Assembly (NCBI GenBank): GCA_963813715.1
Contig: CAWFAK010000005.1
Span: 608,001-672,000, forward strand
Length of the DNA: 64,000 nucleotides
Direction of reading: 5' to 3'
DNA from: an uncultured Planctomycetaceae bacterium
Lineage (GTDB): Bacteria; Planctomycetota; Planctomycetia; Planctomycetales; Planctomycetaceae
In this document: positions 35,852 through 52,790 of the stretch, in pieces
Numbering within the stretch: the stretch's first letter is position 1
How the letters are laid out: each line of letters opens with the position of its first letter
Program-made: the position numbers and the translations under genes
Notes under the pieces: generated by a model
Told to the model about the DNA's origin: nothing
What the model saw: only the letters and a program-made list of their open reading frames with translations
Database searches by the model: none

Positions 35852-35859
35852 TCTATGAG

Positions 35860-36126
35860 AAGGGTAGCGTCAAGGGTTGGTTTTTGCGTTTGAAGTGGTG
35901 ATCTGGGCGATGCGGTACGCTCAACCATCTATTCGGGATCACCAACGGTCTGGAACAGGTCCGTCGATGTCGCCAGGAAGCCGACTTTCGAGAGACGCCC
36001 CATTCACCCTTCGAAGGTCGCTCTTTTGAGGGAACGCCTTCATGGCCGGGGGCGGGGTCGTCTGTGGGTCGTCGCAGCGCTTTCGATCGATGTTTTGTTT
36101 TGTGCTCTCCTGCCAAGGTCAGGGAT
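35860..36126 (-). ncRNA. Candidate bridge/seek RNA region of the IS1111-like element
   Basis: Position in the long non-coding end; inferred from family behaviour only. Confidence 0.45.
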
Positions 36127-37146
36127 TTAAGTCGGTTGCTGGCTGAGCGAGTAGGGTTGGCCCGTCTTCAAGATCGCTGTCATCAGGCACAACAACCGGC
36201 GGGCCACGGCGACGATCGCCTTCTTGGCACGCACGCGCAACTTCAATCGTTCATAAATCCGACGCCAACGTAACGAGTGCTGAACCAGCCGCCAGGCGGC
36301 TTCGACCAGCGTCGAGCGCAGCAGCGTCGAACCGTTCTTCTCCAGGTGCAGCTCCCGACTCTTGCCCGCACTCTCGCGTTGACCCGGTGAGAGCCCTGCG
36401 TAAGCGACGACCCGCTTTTGCGAACCGAAGCGATCAATGTCTGCCAACTCGGCCAGCACAACTTCGGTGGTCACGAAGCCCACTCCGGGGATCGTCCGCA
36501 ACAGCGTCCGCGCTTCCTGCTCGCAAAGCGGCGCCGCCTCGGCGAACTCCTTCAGCCGGGCGTTGACGGCCAGCAGCTGACGCCTCCCGAAGTGCAACTC
36601 TTCGACCATTTGATCCACGGCGAACCGATCCGCTCCCAAGAGAGGCACTTGGGCGAGATACGCCAACCCGTCCACGGTGAACAGACTGGGACGATCCGCG
36701 TTGTAGTCGCAGAGAATGCGGCGCAGACGGTTCTTGACGGAGGTCAATCGCCGTTGAACGCCGCCCCGCTGACGCACCAGTCGTCGATGCTCATGCTGCC
36801 GCGGAGTCGCCCGGTAAGACGTCGGAATCATGTCCAAGGCCAGGAACTCCGCGAGGATTTGCGCGTCGAGCCGATCGCTTTTACGCGTGCTCTCGGCAAT
36901 CACACGCAGCTTCTTGGGGTGGGCCAACAACACGCGATGGGCCACGGGCTCGATCAATCGCACGAACCATTCGTAGCTGGCGGTCGCTTCCACGACAGCC
37001 TCGAACTCCCCGAGCCTCTCGAAAAATGCGAGGATGCTCCGCTCTTCGCCACAACGCACGGTCCGACGCTCCAAGACCCGCCGCAATTGGTCGACGACGC
37101 AAATCGTGATAGTCTGCTTGTGTAGGTCGCAGCCGGCAAATTTCAT
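36127..37146 (-). CDS. IS110 recombinase/transposase
   Basis: GCDLHK, VEAT, KSDRLDA, TIPGVG, AYAGLSP..RESAG. Confidence 0.95.
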   Translation of the reverse strand: MKFAGCDLHKQTITICVVDQLRRVLERRTVRCGEERSILAFFERLGEFEAVVEATASYEWFVRLIEPVAHRVLLAHPKKLRVIAESTRKSDRLDAQILAEFLALDMIPTSYRATPRQHEHRRLVRQRGGVQRRLTSVKNRLRRILCDYNADRPSLFTVDGLAYLAQVPLLGADRFAVDQMVEELHFGRRQLLAVNARLKEFAEAAPLCEQEARTLLRTIPGVGFVTTEVVLAELADIDRFGSQKRVVAYAGLSPGQRESAGKSRELHLEKNGSTLLRSTLVEAAWRLVQHSLRWRRIYERLKLRVRAKKAIVAVARRLLCLMTAILKTGQPYSLSQQPT

Positions 37147-37400
37147 GGCGGTGTCCTTTTGTGGAAACGGTTTGCAACAAACTCCGTTTACCACGTTCAA
37201 GCACAACCACCAACCGGCTCGGCCTACCTCTTACCGCTCCTCATAGCTTCACCCCTGACGCGCCGCCGGATCCAAAAGCCGCAGCGTGTCAGGGGCATGC
37301 CCCTGGGTTTTGAGGGGTGACGCCGATACACTGCGCGAAGATTGCACGGGTCCTGGGATGATTGGCGCGAACAGCCTTTTTGCCTACGGAGAATGTCGAG

Positions 37401-46820: not shown

Positions 46821-48225
46821 TTGCGGACGTTGCCCGTCTCTCCCCTCGAGCCCGTTCCCGTGCTGAAATTCGCGATTCGCAACCTGATGACGCGGCCCAT
46901 GCGCAGCGTGTTGTCGCTGGTGGGGCTCACCGTGGCCATCATGGGGATGATCGGACTCTTTTCAGTCGCCAAGGGACTGGACGAGATGGTCGGCAAGACC
47001 TTCGGCCAGATCGAGGGGCTGGTGGCCATGCAGCCCGGGGCCCCGATCCCGATTTTTTCGCGACTGCCCGCGTCTTGGGGCCCGGAGATTGCCAAGGTCC
47101 CCGGCGTGAAACTGGTCAGCCCGGAAGTTTGGGTGCGGGCCAACGTCATCGACGGCAAGATGATCATCAGCCCGCCCCGCTTTTTGTTCGGAATTGAAAT
47201 TCCCACGCGACTGCAACTGAAAAACCGCGTCTATCGCAAGGACATGATCTCCGGCCGCTATCTCACGGAGGCGGACAAGGGAACGCTCAACACGGTCGTC
47301 AGCAAGTCGATTGCCGACGAGTTTCACAAAACGATCGGCGACACGCTGAACGTCGCCGGCAGTGATCTCAAGATTGTCGGAATTTACAATTGCGGGTCGC
47401 TGTTGTTGGATATCGCACTCATCGTCGATATCGACGAAGTCCGCAAGATCACTCGGTTCGGCAACGACTCGGTCTGCGCGTTCTACATCGAACAAACGGG
47501 CGACGTTCCCGATAGCGAGCTGGCGCCGCGGATTCAGCAAGTTTTCAAAGGGCGGGAAGTCGAAGCCTGGCAGCCCTCGACCAGCCGCGAACCGTTGGAA
47601 AGCGGCAACATGCTGTTCGACCTGTTCGTGCGACTGCTTTCGCGAGTGACGCTGCCGACCGCCGCTCTGGGGAATGCCTCGCTGGGTTCCGGCGACGGTC
47701 ACGCGGCCGGCAAGTCGGGTGACGCAGCGGCAGCCCGCACGACCGCGTCAATCAAAGGGAGTCCACCGTTGTTGCCGGTGGAAGTTCGCAGTCCCACCGA
47801 CTGGGCGAGTCGCTTCCAGGACTTCAGCGCGGACCTCGATTTGTTTCTGGCGATCATGAGCGGGATCGGCGTGACGATTGCCGTCTTGAGCATCGTCAAC
47901 ACGATGCTGATGAGCGTCACCGAACGGATCATCGAGTTCGGCATCCTCAAGGCCAACGGCTGGTCCCGCTACGACGTGTTGCGGTTGATTACCTCGGAGA
48001 GCGCGGTGCTGGGATTTCTTCGGCGGAATCTTTGGCTGCATCGTCGGTTGGTTGGCGACGCGCGGCATCAATTCGATCTGGCCCGACCGCATCTACCTCG
48101 TGGCCACGCCCGGCCTGCTGTTGTTTGGCCTGGCGTTTAGCACGGTCTTGGGCATCTTCGGCGGTCTCTATCCGGCGGTGTGGGCGATGCGAATGATGCC
48201 CATGGACGCGATTCGCCGCGGGTGA
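46821..48225 (+). CDS. MacB/FtsX-type ABC transporter permease (frameshift near 48020)
   Basis: RNL...RS.L start, NTMLMSVTER.EFGILKA.G, C-terminal P.DAIR. Confidence 0.88.
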
Positions 48226-48251: not shown

Positions 48252-48968
48252 TCAGACTGAGACGAGTTCCTTCATTTCGCGGACGGCCCGTTCGAAGCCG
48301 ACCATCACCGCGCGGGCCACGATGCTGTGACCGATGTTGAGTTCGCTGACGCCGGGGATGCGGGCGACTGGAACCACGTTGCGGTAGGTCAGGCCGTGGC
48401 CCATGTGTAGAAGCAGTCCCCGTTCCCGGGCCCAGTGTCCAGCGTCGATGAGCTGCGTCAGTTCGGCCTCTCGATCGGCCGGATTCGTGGCGTCCGCGTA
48501 TCGGCCCGTGTGCAGTTCGACCGCGTGGGCGCCCAGTTGCTCGGCCGCGTCGATCTGGGCCCGATCGGCGTCGATAAACAGGCTCACCTCGATGCCCGCC
48601 TCCAGCAGACGGTCAATGCAGCGAGCGACGCGCTCCCGATTGCCGACGACGTCGAGGCCGCCTTCGGTCGTCACTTCCTCGCGCCGTTCGGGAACGAGAG
48701 TCGCCTGGTCCGGATGCACGTCGATCGCAATCTCGGTGATGCTCGGCTCGGCCGCCATCTCCAGGTTGAGCTTCACCTGCACCGTTTGCTTCATCACGCG
48801 CAGATCGCGGTCTTGAATGTGCCGACGATCCTCGCGGAGGTGCAGTGTGATGCTGTCCGCCCCGGCCAGCTCGGCGAGAGCGGCGGCCCACACCGGGTCG
48901 GGCTCGATCGTCCGGCGGGCCTGTCGGATCGTGGCGACGTGGTCGATATTGACGCCCAGTCGTGGCAT
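48252..48968 (-). CDS. pdxJ: Pyridoxine 5'-phosphate synthase
   Basis: [32 protein letters not shown]. Confidence 0.97.
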
Positions 48969-49308
48969 CGGCTCTCCTCGCTACCTCAAAACTGCTGCCT
49001 GATTCTGCACAGTTTACCCGCCTTTGTGCTTACCCGCCGTTGTGCCCACCTCGACACGCCGGGAGCGCGGCCAGGCTCACGCGACTGGATCGTCCATCGC
49101 AATTTGGCACCTCCCAGCGCATCGCTTGGATGGGCCTGTCCTGCAATGCATGGCCACGCAAAGCCATGGGCCATGGCACTCCACCGGCCACTTAGGCAGT
49201 AGGCGACGGGGTGACTGGGGTCCATGTGTTAGCCGCGCGCCCAGGTCCACACCGCCGGTCTCCTTGTTCAAATGAAAGTGTCCGGACCGGGTAGTGGGGG
49301 CGTTTGAA

Positions 49309-49701
49309 TTACGGTTTTTCGCGATTGGCACGGGAATTTGTGGAGCGAGGGCGCATCGCCTTGTCGACGTTCCAGCCAGAGAGATGGTCTCGGAACTGGC
49401 CTGCATGCTGGTCCCAGATAAGGTCGAAGTGAAGGCGGAGCGCTTCGCCTCGCGCGTCGTCAATCCAGAATTCGACGCGGTTAGTCAGTGTTGAGCCTCC
49501 GGTTTGAGGCCATCCAATCTTCATCGCATCGCAGGACTCGCTAAAAGACATTCCCGTCTTCAGCCGTTGCTCGGCAATGCGGAGAGGGCTTTCGGCAAGT
49601 GGATTGCCACCGATGCTCGCGATGAAGAGCGCCGCGAGGACCATGATACCGAGACATTGGGGAACGGCCTTGATCCAGGCCGTCGGTACTTCGTCGCTCA
49701 T
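49309..49701 (-). CDS. Hypothetical membrane-anchored protein, 130 aa (cassette cargo B)
   Basis: ATG at 49701; N-terminal TM segment; TAA next to the cassette end. Confidence 0.6.
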   Translation of the reverse strand: MSDEVPTAWIKAVPQCLGIMVLAALFIASIGGNPLAESPLRIAEQRLKTGMSFSESCDAMKIGWPQTGGSTLTNRVEFWIDDARGEALRLHFDLIWDQHAGQFRDHLSGWNVDKAMRPRSTNSRANREKP

Positions 49702-49705
49702 GCCG

Positions 49706-49849
49706 TCATTCCGCGCGACCTTCGTAGTCGAGGATCCCCCGAACCCGATAAGACCCATATTGGGCGTATGATGCGAGCAAAGCGAACGCGAAGGCGAGCA
49801 CTGTGAGCACGACAACCGCAATGAATACGTATCGCTTGCTTCGGCTCAT
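49706..49849 (-). CDS. 47-aa single-TM peptide (cassette cargo A)
   Basis: TAGAAT-N6-ATG leaderless start; MSRSKRYVFIAVVVLTVLAFAFALLAS... Confidence 0.5.
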   Translation of the reverse strand: MSRSKRYVFIAVVVLTVLAFAFALLASYAQYGSYRVRGILDYEGRAE

Positions 49850-49879
49850 GCCGTCATTCTAGCGGCGGCCACCCCCCGG

Positions 49880-50504
49880 ATTCAGACTTCGCCCTAAAAG
49901 CTATCCGCTGCGCCTCTTAGCACCGGTCTAAATCCGAATTGTGAAGATCAGACCGGACCTGACTCGATTGGCAGTGACGCTATCTAAGCCAATCACGCCT
50001 GAGCCAATCAGGGGGGTGGCTGCGTCGAGGGGTCAGGCTCGCCCCCAGGTCACAACCGCCGGTCTCCTTGTTCAAATGAAAGTGTCCGGACCGGATTCAG
50101 ACTTCGTCCTAAACTGCAGCCATTGCACCTCTTAACCCCGGTCTGAATCGGAATTGTGAAGATTAGACCGGACCGGACCTGACTCGACTGGCTGCGACGA
50201 TATCCGGGCCAAGCGGGAGAGTAGCTTGGTCGAGCCGTCAGGCTCGCCCCGCGGTCCCGGACCGCCGGTCCCTGTCTGTAAATGAAAGAGTCCGGACCGG
50301 ATTCAGACTTCGCCCTAAACCGCAGCTGCTGCGACGCTTAACTCCGGTCTAAATCCGAATTGTGAAGAGGAGACCGGACTGGACCTGACTCCGATGTTGT
50401 GCTCGCAGTCGAGCCCAGCTCGGGTGGCTGGGGTCGAGCCGTCAGGCTCGCCCCCAGGTCCGCAACCGCCGGACTCGTTGTTCAAACGAAAGTGTCCGGA
50501 CCGG
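49880..50504. repeat. Tandem array of three 204-215-bp units, plus a partial unit at 49241-49290
   Basis: Units begin ATTCAGACTTCG at 49880, 50095 and 50301 and end AAAG(T/A)GTCCGGACCGG; 49251-49290 is identical to 50055-50094. Confidence 0.92.
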
Positions 50505-50705
50505 ACCTGACGTCATCCGGCTACCGACCACGCCGTCGATGCCCATCAATGTTGCGGCCATTTCATCCCCGGCGCAAGCCGATCTCGGCCGTCACGACGG
50601 GGCCAAACTCCATTCTGCCACAAATTGCCAACCAACCAAGATCGGTTTTCTACGCCGCTCAGTTTCTCGGTCGCTCGGCCGGAATGCAGACGGGAGATTT
50701 ACCGG

Positions 50706-50743
50706 GGGTGCCAGGGTTGAGCTTGCTCGAGCGTGCTCTTAAC
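50706..50743. repeat. GGGTG-footed REP hairpin; uninterrupted relative of the IS target at 31764/32992
   Basis: GGGTGCCAGGGTTGAGCTTGCTCGAGCGTGCTCTTAAC. Confidence 0.75.
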
Positions 50744-50796
50744 GGGTTCAGCAACCGTCGTCATCAGGCGGAAGGAGCAAAGGGGCAGACGCACGG

Positions 50797-52790
50797 TCAA
50801 TCGCCGTTCGGGCCGTCGATCACCAGCGTGCAATCTGGCAGGCTCTCGAGGAACTGTCGGCCGTACGGTTTGCTGCGAATCCGCGGATCGAGAATCGCGA
50901 CCTGCCCGGTGTCCGCCTTGCGGCGAATCAGGCGTCCGAAGCCCTGCTTGAGTTTGATCACGGCCTCGGGCACCTGGTATTCGATGAAGGGATTGCCCCC
51001 TCGCTCACGAATCGCCTCCAGCCGCGCCTCGAGCAGCGGATGATCGGGCACGCTGAACGGGAGCTTGGTGATGATCACGTTCTGCAGCGCGTCGCCGGGC
51101 ACGTCGACTCCCTGCCAGAAGCTGTCGGTGCCGAACAACACGCCGGCGGCGTCCTTGCGGAAGCGTTCCAACATCAGCGAATTCGGCAGCCCGTCGGACT
51201 GGCAGTAAAGCGTGTATTGATGCCGGGCGAACCATTGAGCGAGTCGCTCGGCACAGCTCTTGAGCATTTTGTAACTGGTAAACAGCACAAACGCGCGGCC
51301 GTGCGTTTCCGTCACATGGTGTTGGATGCGTTCGCAGACCGCCTGCTCATACTCACGGGGATGGGCGGCCGGGTCGGGCATGCCGTCGGAGAGGATCAAT
51401 CGCGCCTGACGCTTGAAGTCGAACGGGCTGCCGAGCCGGCACTCGTCGGCGGCGCCAGCCCCCAGGCGGTCCTTAATGAAGTCGAAGCTGCGCTTGCCGA
51501 CGGCGAGCGTGGCGCTGGTGAGGATCACCGTCTTCACCCGGTCGAAGAGTTCGCTCTTGAGCACCGGGCCAACTTCGATCGGTGCACAGTGCAGCTCGGT
51601 GCGCGGCCGTTTTCCCTGTCGGACCTCGATCCAGTAGACGCAACCGGGCAACGACTGCTTGAGCCAGGCCGCCAGCGATTGGCCCAGCTCGATACAGCGC
51701 TGGGCGGCGGCCGTCAGCTCGATCGACTGTTCTTCGTTCACGATCTCCTTCGCGGCAGAGTTCATCGTCGCTGCCAGCTCGGTGAGCGCGGGGGTGACTT
51801 TGTTCACGACGTCGAGCGGTTGTCGGAGGCGGCCATTTTCGCTTCCGTGAACCTCGTGCCAGTCGCGGAGATCCTCGAGCAAGTCCCGCACACCGTGGCG
51901 GATGCGGTCGACCAGCCGCTGCGCGTCGAGAGTTTGTGGTGCACCAGCAGGCCGCGCTGCGTGTAGTCGTTGTAGAGCTTGTTGAGCAGGTAATCGAACT
52001 GTCCGCTGGTGAGCGTCAGTCCCATCCGGTCGCCGGCGACCGCTTCGACGGTGTGAGCTTCGTCGAGCACGACGACTTCATAATCGGGCAGCAAGCTCAC
52101 CCCTTCCCGCCGCAACGCCAGGTCAGAGAAGAAGAGGGCGTGATTGACCACCAGGACGTCGGCGTCCCAAATCCGCCGCCGCGCCTGGTAATAGAAGCAG
52201 TCGTTGTACGTGGGGCATTTTTTCCCCAGGCAATTGCCACGATCGCTAGCGACTTCGTCCCAGACGTTGGGGAACGGCCGCAGCGACAAATCGCTGCGCG
52301 TGCCGTCGGTCGTCCGCCGCGACCAGTCGAGGATCGTCTGCAGCTGCTCGAATTCCTGCTCCTGAAAGAAAATCGATTTGGCCCGTTCGACGGCGGCGTT
52401 CATCCGCCGCAGACTGATGTAGTTCCCGCGCCCTTTCGCCAGCACGCACGAGAACTCAACCGGCAGCACTGAACGCAGAAAGGGGATGTCCCGCGTGACG
52501 AGCTGTTCCTGCAGGCTGATCGTGTGGGTCGAAATGACGAGGGGCTTGCGGGGGCGTTCCGTGGTGCCCGTCGGATCGTGTTCCGCGGTGACTGCCAGAA
52601 TGGCCGGGACGAGGTAGGCGAAACTCTTGCCCACGCCAGTTCCCGCTTCGACCAGCAAATGCCTCGACTCCGCGATGGCCCGCTCGACCGCTTCGGCCAT
52701 TTCCAGCTGCTGTGGCCGGTGTTCGTAACTGTCGAGGCGCCGGGCGATTCGGCCGTCACTGCCGAGCACGGAGGTGGCATTGAGCGTCAA
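50797..52790 (-). CDS. dinG: DinG/YoaA family ATP-dependent helicase (frameshift near 51900)
   Basis: EAGTGVGKS, DEAH, TSATL, FWQGVD, QGFGRLIR. Confidence 0.92.

Follow-up and report, generated by a model that had tools for sequence, protein, structure and literature searches.

Mobile insertion cassettes, such as MIC231 of the IS231/IS4 family or the qnr-carrying mic elements, are formed by the inverted repeats of an insertion sequence (IS) placed around passenger genes, with no transposase in between. The locus described in the following belongs to a stretch of 64,000 nucleotides from an uncultured Planctomycetaceae bacterium (genome G000; the stretch as a whole, G000:C5:608001-672000, is referred to as the window) and carries, at the first boundary of a short tandem array of repeat units, an insert with two small open reading frames (ORFs), which is probably the remnant of such a cassette. 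The element and its relatives resemble mobile insertion cassettes in being transposase-less passengers flanked by IS repeats, and presumably moved in trans, but here the IS family is a different one, what is carried are very small genes for membrane proteins, leaderless in appearance and sharing a start box, and site preference and tandem stacking are added.

The choice of one position within a repeat is, in turn, known from ISs that target repetitive extragenic palindromic (REP) sequences or bacterial interspersed mosaic elements (BIMEs). The portion of Tobes & Pareja 2006 (PMC1525189) that treats this subject distributes REP-targeting ISs over five families (IS3, IS110, IS4, IS256 and IS5), with IS1 not listed there, and gives as examples IS1397 and ISKpn1 of the IS3 family and IS621, ISPa11 and ISPpu9 of the IS110 family. 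Measured against that portion, the likeness lies in the repeated choice, by a transposable element, of a single position within a palindromic repeat that is dispersed between genes and itself found in mosaic clusters; the difference is that here the enzyme appears to be of the IS1 family, the target is at the 3′ edge of a palindromic module of ~35 nt, 9 bp are duplicated, and most copies are non-autonomous and gene-carrying.

The repeat units themselves recall REP clusters, the large ones of which, in the part of Di Nocera et al. 2013 (PMC3733652) devoted to them, reiterate units in tandem along with flanking DNA. In terms of that partial description, what is alike is the tandem arrangement of a ~206-nt mosaic of palindromic modules, the occurrence elsewhere of a ~38-nt hairpin alone, and a ‘B-core’ (the 9-mer TCCGGACCG preceded by GAAAGTG) with which several repeat families end, whereas the units are here far longer than REP dimers, the B-cores (~40-50) are fewer than classical REPs, and a tail of ~230 nt follows the arrays. 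No association with REP-associated tyrosine transposases (RAYTs) was found, the 8 matches to PF01797 in the genome including none within 20 kb of the arrays.

A third comparison is that with integrons, to which the first-pass annotation of this DNA had likened the locus. Integron cassette arrays and integrase-less attC clusters do share with it short units, conserved boundaries, variable small ORFs, a quick turnover of the cargo and a recurrent precise junction. Here, in contrast, there is no IntI, no GTTRRRY core at the junctions and apparently no common upstream promoter, each cassette having its own promoter-like box, and what bounds the cassettes are the inverted repeats of a transposon, accompanied by 9-bp target duplications that vary. 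The likeness thus holds for conserved boundaries, variable small genes, stacking and turnover, but not for mechanism or membership.

Repeat-targeting ISs and mobile insertion cassettes are each known. In the literature searched, which did not extend to the ISfinder naming of the IS1 subgroup, there was no account of an IS1-family repeat-targeting cassette, and an IS1-family lineage that combines both properties, i.e. palindromic-repeat site preference, gene-carrying non-autonomous copies and stacking by target regeneration, was not found. If true, the reading proposed here would provide a second, transposase-based route to integron-like cassette arrays and a handle on the gain and loss of very small membrane-protein families in planctomycete genomes. 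For the purpose of annotation, it accounts for a type of hypervariable island between genes, in which genomes are unlike each other even when the flanking genes share 91-94% identity.

Ends of the insert, target duplications and the preferred site

Reading of the sequence, together with a scripted check, bore out the geometry given by the first-pass annotation, namely CCGG junctions (49287-49290, 49876-49879, 50091-50094 and 50297-50300; a further CCGG is at 50501-50504), the first two of which are separated by the insert and are 585 bp apart (589 bp with one CCGG included), with two small ORFs between them. As had also been stated, the 40 nt up to 49290 are identical to the 40 nt up to 50094, where unit 1 ends; the identical run with the ends of units 2 and 3 is of just 11 and 17 nt. 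The further proposal of a site-specific crossover at CCGG was not supported, the left end of the cargo being an IS1-family inverted repeat of which complete copies are flanked by 9-bp duplications (TCCGGACCG, TCCGGACCT, TCCGGTCCC and CGCCCCGCA).

This left end (‘end1’) matches positions 1-55 of a profile made from 6 end1 copies, has its tip directly after TCCGGACCG, and shares 94% identity, across 49 nt, with the end of C8:490741-493662, an element that carries a transposase. Its inverted partner (‘end2’) has the tip GGTAATGGGG or GGTAGTGGGG. The complete relatives, five in number (table 1), have both inverted repeats, with tips GGTARTGGGG, and perfect 9-bp direct repeats of four different sequences. 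Because the 9-mer varies by site while the inverted repeats are constant, the 9-mer is a target-site duplication and not a part of the element, and inverted repeats accompanied by site-variable 9-bp duplications are a signature of DDE transposition. The target duplication of IS1 is ~9 bp long.

On sequence comparison, the 313-aa protein encoded by the C8 copy would belong to the IS1-family DDE transposases. It scores 38.8 bits with Pfam PF03400 (DDE_Tnp_IS1; cut-off 24.1), over residues 207-239 only, and tblastn aligns 87% of it, at 36-38% identity, with plasmid genes that have the annotation ‘IS1 family transposase’. Of this transposase G000 has three copies without interruption, besides a broken one and two fragments, and no other recombinase lies within such an element. 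The short copies thus qualify as mobile insertion cassettes of the IS1-family element, with sizes of 0.44-0.86 kb for the non-autonomous and 2.9-3.2 kb for the autonomous copies. As for the co-occurring recombinase that the first-pass annotation recommended looking for, no tyrosine, serine or HUH/Y1 enzyme is found within 20 kb of any array (genome-wide matches being 11 for PF00589 and 8 for PF00239, besides those for PF01797 given above), and an IS1-family transposase is found inside the element itself.

The GGTAG tip was also considered as that of a GTAG-tagged REP/RAYT system, a reading rejected because the element contains a transposase, ends in inverted repeats and is flanked by 9-bp duplications. 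As a separate observation, the ends of two IS1-family copies are often 8-10 nt apart (G010:C401, G003, G004 and G000:C15), an arrangement reminiscent of tandem IS dimers, or of a regenerated target that has received more than one insertion.

The copy in the window has retained one end. The end2 profile gave 7 nhmmer matches at E ≤ 10, none of them in the window, and at the right junction the promoter-like box is followed only by CACCCCCCGG and then by the start of unit 1. Just CCG of the expected 9-bp duplication is left there, before G-ATTCAG; the right junctions of the C8 and C7 copies are intact. The insert of 589 bp is probably a non-autonomous IS1-family element in decay; with its right inverted repeat gone, and the right duplication for the most part as well, it would be an immobile remnant and not a functional member, and the two CCGG that flank it would be the remains of the duplicated 9-mer.

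The units were followed across the whole genome by nhmmer with a profile built from 16 full units, which yielded 38 matches at E ≤ 0.01 and approximately eleven solid loci on contigs C5, C7, C8, C12, C15 and C17. Each array has one to three units and opens with a truncated unit of varying length, and seven arrays, that of the window among them, are closed by the conserved tail, for which the window is 85-91% identical to the other six. Solo 5′ parts of the unit (profile positions 1-81 to 1-90) and solo 3′ parts both exist, and the unit boundaries are sharp. In an alignment of 18 units the invariant blocks include two inverted repeats whose half-site is CCGGTCT/AGACCGG, besides a loop that does not vary and the terminal GAAAGTGTCCGGACCGG. 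The two palindromes singled out in the first-pass annotation were found again, CCGGTCT...AGACCGG in all three units of the window and GTCCGGAC in all four unit ends, both being (nearly) invariant across the 18 units. Among the 41 genomes searched, full units are confined to G000 and G002, and the ~38-nt hairpin module is abundant alone in other species of the genus.

The B-core closes at least four different repeat families in G000, the 16-mer being found 39 times and a 14-mer 52 times. Other repeat families at C8:291005-291566 and at ~12 further sites of G000 end in the motif GAAAGTGTCCGGACCG and then continue differently, with a ~190-nt tandem array at C8:291 kb and with another family containing ...GTCCGCCGTAAGTC...; owing to this shared ending, the B-core is a common module of several mosaic repeats. 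After the final CCGG of a unit comes the next unit, the tail or a conserved sequence of ~50 nt starting with GGTAGTGGGG, and it is this last type of continuation that opens the cargo in the window and at C8:493662, C5:559595 and C7:437078.

A structured-RNA reading of the unit was dropped, since Rfam gave 0 matches at E ≤ 1 for 48900-50800 and RNAalifold, with the plus strand of the 18 units folded, predicted 17 pairs, 0 of which with a compensatory change, the stems being invariant. Without covariation or an Rfam match, the units are read as DNA-level mosaics of palindromic modules of the BIME type, neither RNA genes nor attC sites. The notion that they are dedicated empty attachment sites, also advanced in the first-pass annotation, was not substantiated; what the units carry is a preferred target at their boundary. 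Two further candidates were set aside. The unit as a transposable element of the miniature inverted-repeat type (MITE) is unsupported, its ends not being, by inspection, mutual inverted repeats, and the boundary 9-mer as a MITE target duplication is unsupported because it is indistinguishable from plain tandem repetition. The first 82 nt of the unit, considered as a separate mini-element between near-copies of the 9-mer, were likewise left as an unsupported candidate.

The 9-mer TCCGGACCG occurs 236 times in the genome, the next letters being GATTCAG (unit start) in 22 cases, GACCTG in 6 and GGTAGTGGGG in 4. With end1 copies counted as tip-reaching when the match starts at profile position ≤ 5 with E < 0.01, 4 of the 12 such copies in G000 are next to the unit 9-mer, all of them among the 39 9-mers with GAAAGTG ahead (0 among the other 197). 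These 4 copies represent three subtypes, which occur also at unrelated sites in the genus. Filled junctions amount to four in G000 (the window and 3 other places), two in G002 and three or four in G007, and the occupation of the same junction in at least three species by three element subtypes points to a real target preference. In this respect the first-pass annotation had judged well, its discrete and probably promoter-bearing gene cassette at a precise, recurrent junction being found also at these other places, and the objection it had itself raised, that no other array copy might be filled at the same CCGG, is contradicted by them.

Strict specificity is not claimed because, among 17 end1 copies sampled in seven genomes, 10 have unique, unrelated flanks (5 abut the end of another copy, with 8-10 nt between); the target is concluded to be preferred, not exclusive. 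In the element of G007:C202 the cassette repeats and the duplication are intact and the flanking unit is, by eye, ~60% like that of G000, which suggests a recent, independent insertion.

With a probability of roughly 70%, then, the insert is taken to be what remains of a mobile insertion cassette of the IS1 family, placed at a 9-bp target which such elements prefer and which lies at the edge of a BIME-like unit. A transposase supplied in trans would have inserted it at the first unit boundary, within the 9-mer, the palindromic B-core (GAAAGTG, then the 9-mer) guiding the choice of the target. The 9-bp duplication would have regenerated the target on either side of the insertion, so that such cassettes could stack head to tail, as they do in relatives. 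The cassette would have been frozen by a later deletion, in which its right inverted repeat was lost along with 6 nt of the right duplication, so that a CCGG is now found on either side.

Cassette genes and their turnover between relatives

In the window, TAGAAT is found on the minus strand at 49856-49861, 6 nt ahead of the ATG of ORF1. ORF2 starts 4 nt past the stop of ORF1, begins with MSDE followed by a hydrophobic stretch, and is preceded by a second copy of the start box (49696-49711) in the form of a 16-nt exact direct repeat. At ≤ 2 mismatches the 18-nt start box has 46 occurrences in the genome. Cassettes in general have TAGAAT 6 nt before the ATG of the first ORF and, after the last ORF, a conserved 3′ module that runs into end1; small ORFs, each with a start box before it and on the strand opposite to the unit, are found in autonomous and short copies alike. 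In the window, the TAGAAT box of the cassette itself is probably what drives the two small genes, whose message would be leaderless.

Many cassette ORFs begin with MSDEPKKR followed by a hydrophobic helix. Neither Pfam nor NCBIfam gave a family for the four small ORFs tested with each, and ORF2 of the window has none in either. An 87-aa protein of the MSDEPKKR type has 35 relatives at E ≤ 0.001, all hypothetical where named, three of which come from metagenome-assembled genomes of Planctomycetaceae. For ORF2, 1 protein among 33 candidates reaches E ≤ 0.001 (98% identical), ORF2 being otherwise an orphan; its GC content at third codon positions (GC3) is 0.67, below that of the flanking genes, and its codon bias is weaker. 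ORF1 has DNA homologues in G002:C3 and G009:C27, with 84-87% identity and an in-frame length difference. The homologue in G009 is inside another bounded cassette array, and not in the ordinary unbounded context that the first-pass annotation had named as an argument against itself; it is followed there by a different second ORF, so that modules are reshuffled at the boxes.

Three islands of co-oriented small ORFs (G000:C15:100300-109300, C5:1499000-1504000 and C5:441000-446800), many of the MSDEPKKR type and each with a start box, are interleaved with IS1-family inverted-repeat tips and transposase genes. They are the main reservoirs of the cassette family.

The cargo and the arrays turn over quickly. 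The whole block of ~1.7 kb (about 49081-50790) is absent at the orthologous site of G002, the closest relative, where in G002:C6 a pdxJ-like gene (91% identity) and a DinG-like gene (94%), both named by eye, are 123 nt apart, versus 1,817 nt here. Metagenome contigs of relatives have the same empty form, with ~48977 joined to ~50816. Also a 4.6-kb composite at C7:434983-439598 is absent from G002, in which its flanks are 11 bp apart. When the ends of the block and of the C7 composite were compared with the empty sites of G002, their boundaries could be placed only approximately, and they showed no duplication. Conversely, C5:556.8-559.6 kb is orthologous to G002:C2 (flanks 93-94% identical) and both are filled at the same junction, the cargo they share being only 220 nt (96%). 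The right part of the G002:C2 cassette, just left of the first unit, has on the opposite strand a stretch resembling a tRNA T-arm and 3′ acceptor end.

Weighing of the alternatives

Several points weigh against the cassette-remnant reading. The window copy has one inverted repeat and no intact duplication, so that transposition at this locus is read from the relatives, and its right junction is not derivable from the canonical right end by one simple deletion. The cassettes at G000 C5:557553-558107, G002:C2 and G007:C327 are also without the right inverted repeat, and end in a spacer followed by the B-core. In particular, G007:C327 has four head-to-tail cassettes, each made of a conserved 5′ region of ~110 nt, one to three variable ORFs and the 3′ module; the 5′ region opens with the reverse complement of the B-core, and end2 is absent. 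Head-to-tail arrays of such ‘one-ended’ cassettes are unexplained by plain transposition. The 313-aa protein of the C8 copy scores 59.8 bits with the NCBIfam IS1 model NF033558, under the cut-off of 100. ORF2, as an orphan, may not be a real gene, and a strict sigma-70 scan gave 0 promoters, the promoter role of TAGAAT being one that we infer. Finally, the window and C8 loci share an identical stretch of 25 nt, located ~100 nt left of the solo unit end, and on account of this stretch and of the 94%-identical end1 the pair may be copies of one ancestral composite.

A wider proposal would make of these elements a transposase-driven counterpart of the integron, with the B-core as landing pad and the target regenerated at each insertion, self-promoted cassettes of membrane-protein genes piling up, ORFs reshuffled at the start box and 3′ module, and the arrays acting as a standing supply of pads. 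It is offered tentatively, as a possibility rather than an expectation, mainly because the cassettes of G007:C327 without end2 defy plain transposition.

The common origin that may be suspected for the window and C8 loci, if extended to the remaining junctions, would remove the target preference altogether: a single ancestral insertion into an array would have been copied with its flanks, by block duplication or inter-repeat recombination, and the window junction would have been inherited filled. Besides the shared 25-nt stretch and the similarity of the end1 copies, the absence from G002 of both the whole block and the 4.6-kb C7 composite fits with such an explanation, since blocks therefore come and go whole. 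Three end1 subtypes are, however, found at the junction, its occupants of 791, 2,922 and 738 bp have intact inverted repeats and perfect duplications, the G007 cassette has kept its repeats and duplication next to a unit that has diverged to ~60% (by eye), and a variant 9-mer is reused in the G010 tandem, all of which make a single insertion unlikely.

Less probable still is a true site-specific, integron-like system, in which circles would recombine within GTCCGGACCGG through a tyrosine, serine or HUH recombinase encoded elsewhere and the units would be its empty sites. The identity of the junction at 4 places in G000, 2 in G002 and 3-4 in G007 would be expected of it, as would the 4 head-to-tail cassettes of G007:C327, with conserved ends and variable ORFs, the turnover of the cargo at an orthologous locus, and the several cassettes that have B-core copies on both sides and no right inverted repeat. 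Against it, inverted repeats with site-variable 9-bp duplications fit the staggered cut of a DDE enzyme and not a fixed crossover core, the only recombinase inside such an element is the IS1-family transposase, and the flanks of 10 end1 copies, out of 17 from the genus, are unrelated. There are, furthermore, 0 matches to PF00589, PF00239 or PF01797 within 20 kb of the arrays. The lack of a nearby integrase and of GTTRRRY attC sites had been correctly seen in the first-pass annotation: the PF00589 match nearest to any array is 22 kb off (C15:30892 versus the array at C15:53010) and none is in the window, and the 2 GTTRRRY in 49206-50504 (at 49490 and 50336) are not at a junction, the 81 in the window versus 71.8 expected giving no enrichment.

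The excised circle, for which the first-pass annotation had suggested a search, was looked for in Logan contigs from soil, peat and rhizosphere metagenomes, among which no run had more than 0.21 of the sampled words. Joints that go back from the right to the left of the insert were met with (e.g. 49869 to 49269, with 36 letters between), but do not constitute evidence for a circle, because they match the cassette-then-B-core order present at other loci and in relatives.

That the units are the mobile parts (MITE-like or RNA-coding) and have inserted beside pre-existing small-gene modules, the ‘insert’ being just the DNA between two of them, would agree with the sharp boundaries, the solo 5′ and 3′ parts, the same 9-mer flanking each unit and the lack of arrays at the G002 orthologous sites, but is the least probable of all, given that unit ends are not mutual inverted repeats, that at least 17 nt of unit end precede every unit start but the first of the window, as in tandem repeats, that 0 of the 17 predicted base pairs are compensatory and no Rfam match was obtained, that precisely at the junction the cargo ends in an inverted repeat of its own, and that the entry of complete cassettes into uninterrupted junctions is already indicated by C8, C7 and G007:C202.

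Layout of the block and neighbouring features

The features of the block and the complete relatives of the inserted element are collected in table 1.

Table 1. Features of the mosaic block (positions of the window) and complete IS1-family elements of G000 and its relatives.
Feature	Position	Strand	Evidence or remark
Whole mosaic block (left piece, solo unit end, cassette remnant, 3 units, tail)	49081..50790		approximate boundaries
Solo unit 3′ part, profile positions 121-206	49206..49290	+	nhmmer E = 6e-11
9-bp target TCCGGACCG closing the solo unit end, after the palindromic B-core	49281-49289	+	
End1 (tip GGTAGTGGGG): terminal inverted repeat of the left side, with the adjoining subterminal region	49290..49344	+	nhmmer E = 1.9e-12
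ORF2, 130 aa	49309..49701	-	ORF listing
ORF1, 47 aa, small hydrophobic protein	49706..49849	-	ORF listing
Conserved start box and promoter-like box	49844..49870	-	16-nt exact direct repeat
Cassette right junction, without right inverted repeat	49870..49879	+	end2 profile gave no match in the window
Unit 1, 215 nt	49880..50094	+	nhmmer E = 2e-51
Unit 2, 206 nt	50095..50300	+	nhmmer E = 5e-54
Unit 3, 204 nt	50301..50504	+	nhmmer E = 4e-57
Conserved array tail	50505..50780	+	50533-50780, 85-91% identity to post-last-unit sequence at six other arrays
Complete element, 2,922 bp	G000 C8:490741-493662		transposase present; repeat TCCGGACCG; same unit junction, another array
Complete element, 791 bp	G000 C7:437078-437868		no transposase; repeat TCCGGACCG; same unit junction, another array
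Complete element, 3,191 bp	G000 C15:105527-108717		transposase present; repeat CGCCCCGCA; small-gene island
Complete element, 738 bp	G007:C202		no transposase; repeat TCCGGACCT; between GAAAGTG and a diverged unit start
Complete element, 438 bp	G010:C401		no transposase; repeat TCCGGTCCC; tandem of such elements with that 9-mer between

The three units (49880-50504) are arranged head to tail in tandem, measure ~206 nt each and have pairwise identities of 74-78%. The array was not reported by Tandem Repeats Finder, presumably because the copies are only ~75% alike, and was detected by a separate repeat search. An 18-nt inverted repeat (49865-49882/50006-50023, 89% complementary) pairs the right junction of the cassette with a 15-nt extra segment exclusive to unit 1, and may be relevant to how the right end was rearranged. 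The final ~99 nt of the tail (50681-50779) are a separate generic repeat, with many copies in G000 and also many, at 82-88% identity, in G009 and G003. A weak terminator-like hairpin on the minus strand (50506-50494) is the sole one from the scan that gave 0 strict sigma-70 sites.

Just outside the block, the intergenic segment 49014-49045 is a 16-nt tandem duplication (TTACCCGCC[T/G]TTGTGC, twice). The genes on either side of the block, a permease-like one (46821-48225) and the DinG-like helicase gene (50797-52790), the names being read by eye, each appear split into two overlapping ORFs in different frames (46821-48140 and 48052-48225; 50797-51891 and 51804-52790), and the splits could be frameshifts or assembly errors.

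Elsewhere in the window, 35856-37237 on the minus strand (G000:C5:643856-645237) is occupied by an IS110-family IS of 1.38 kb, which has 8 copies with 97-99% identity and of which the C7 copy matches Pfam DEDD_Tnp_IS110 and Transposase_20. A GC-rich hairpin of another repeat family borders six or seven of the eight copies on the right, and at C7:435612-436992 the IS interrupts a ~206-nt unit beside its 38-nt hairpin; it looks like a second repeat-targeting IS in G000.

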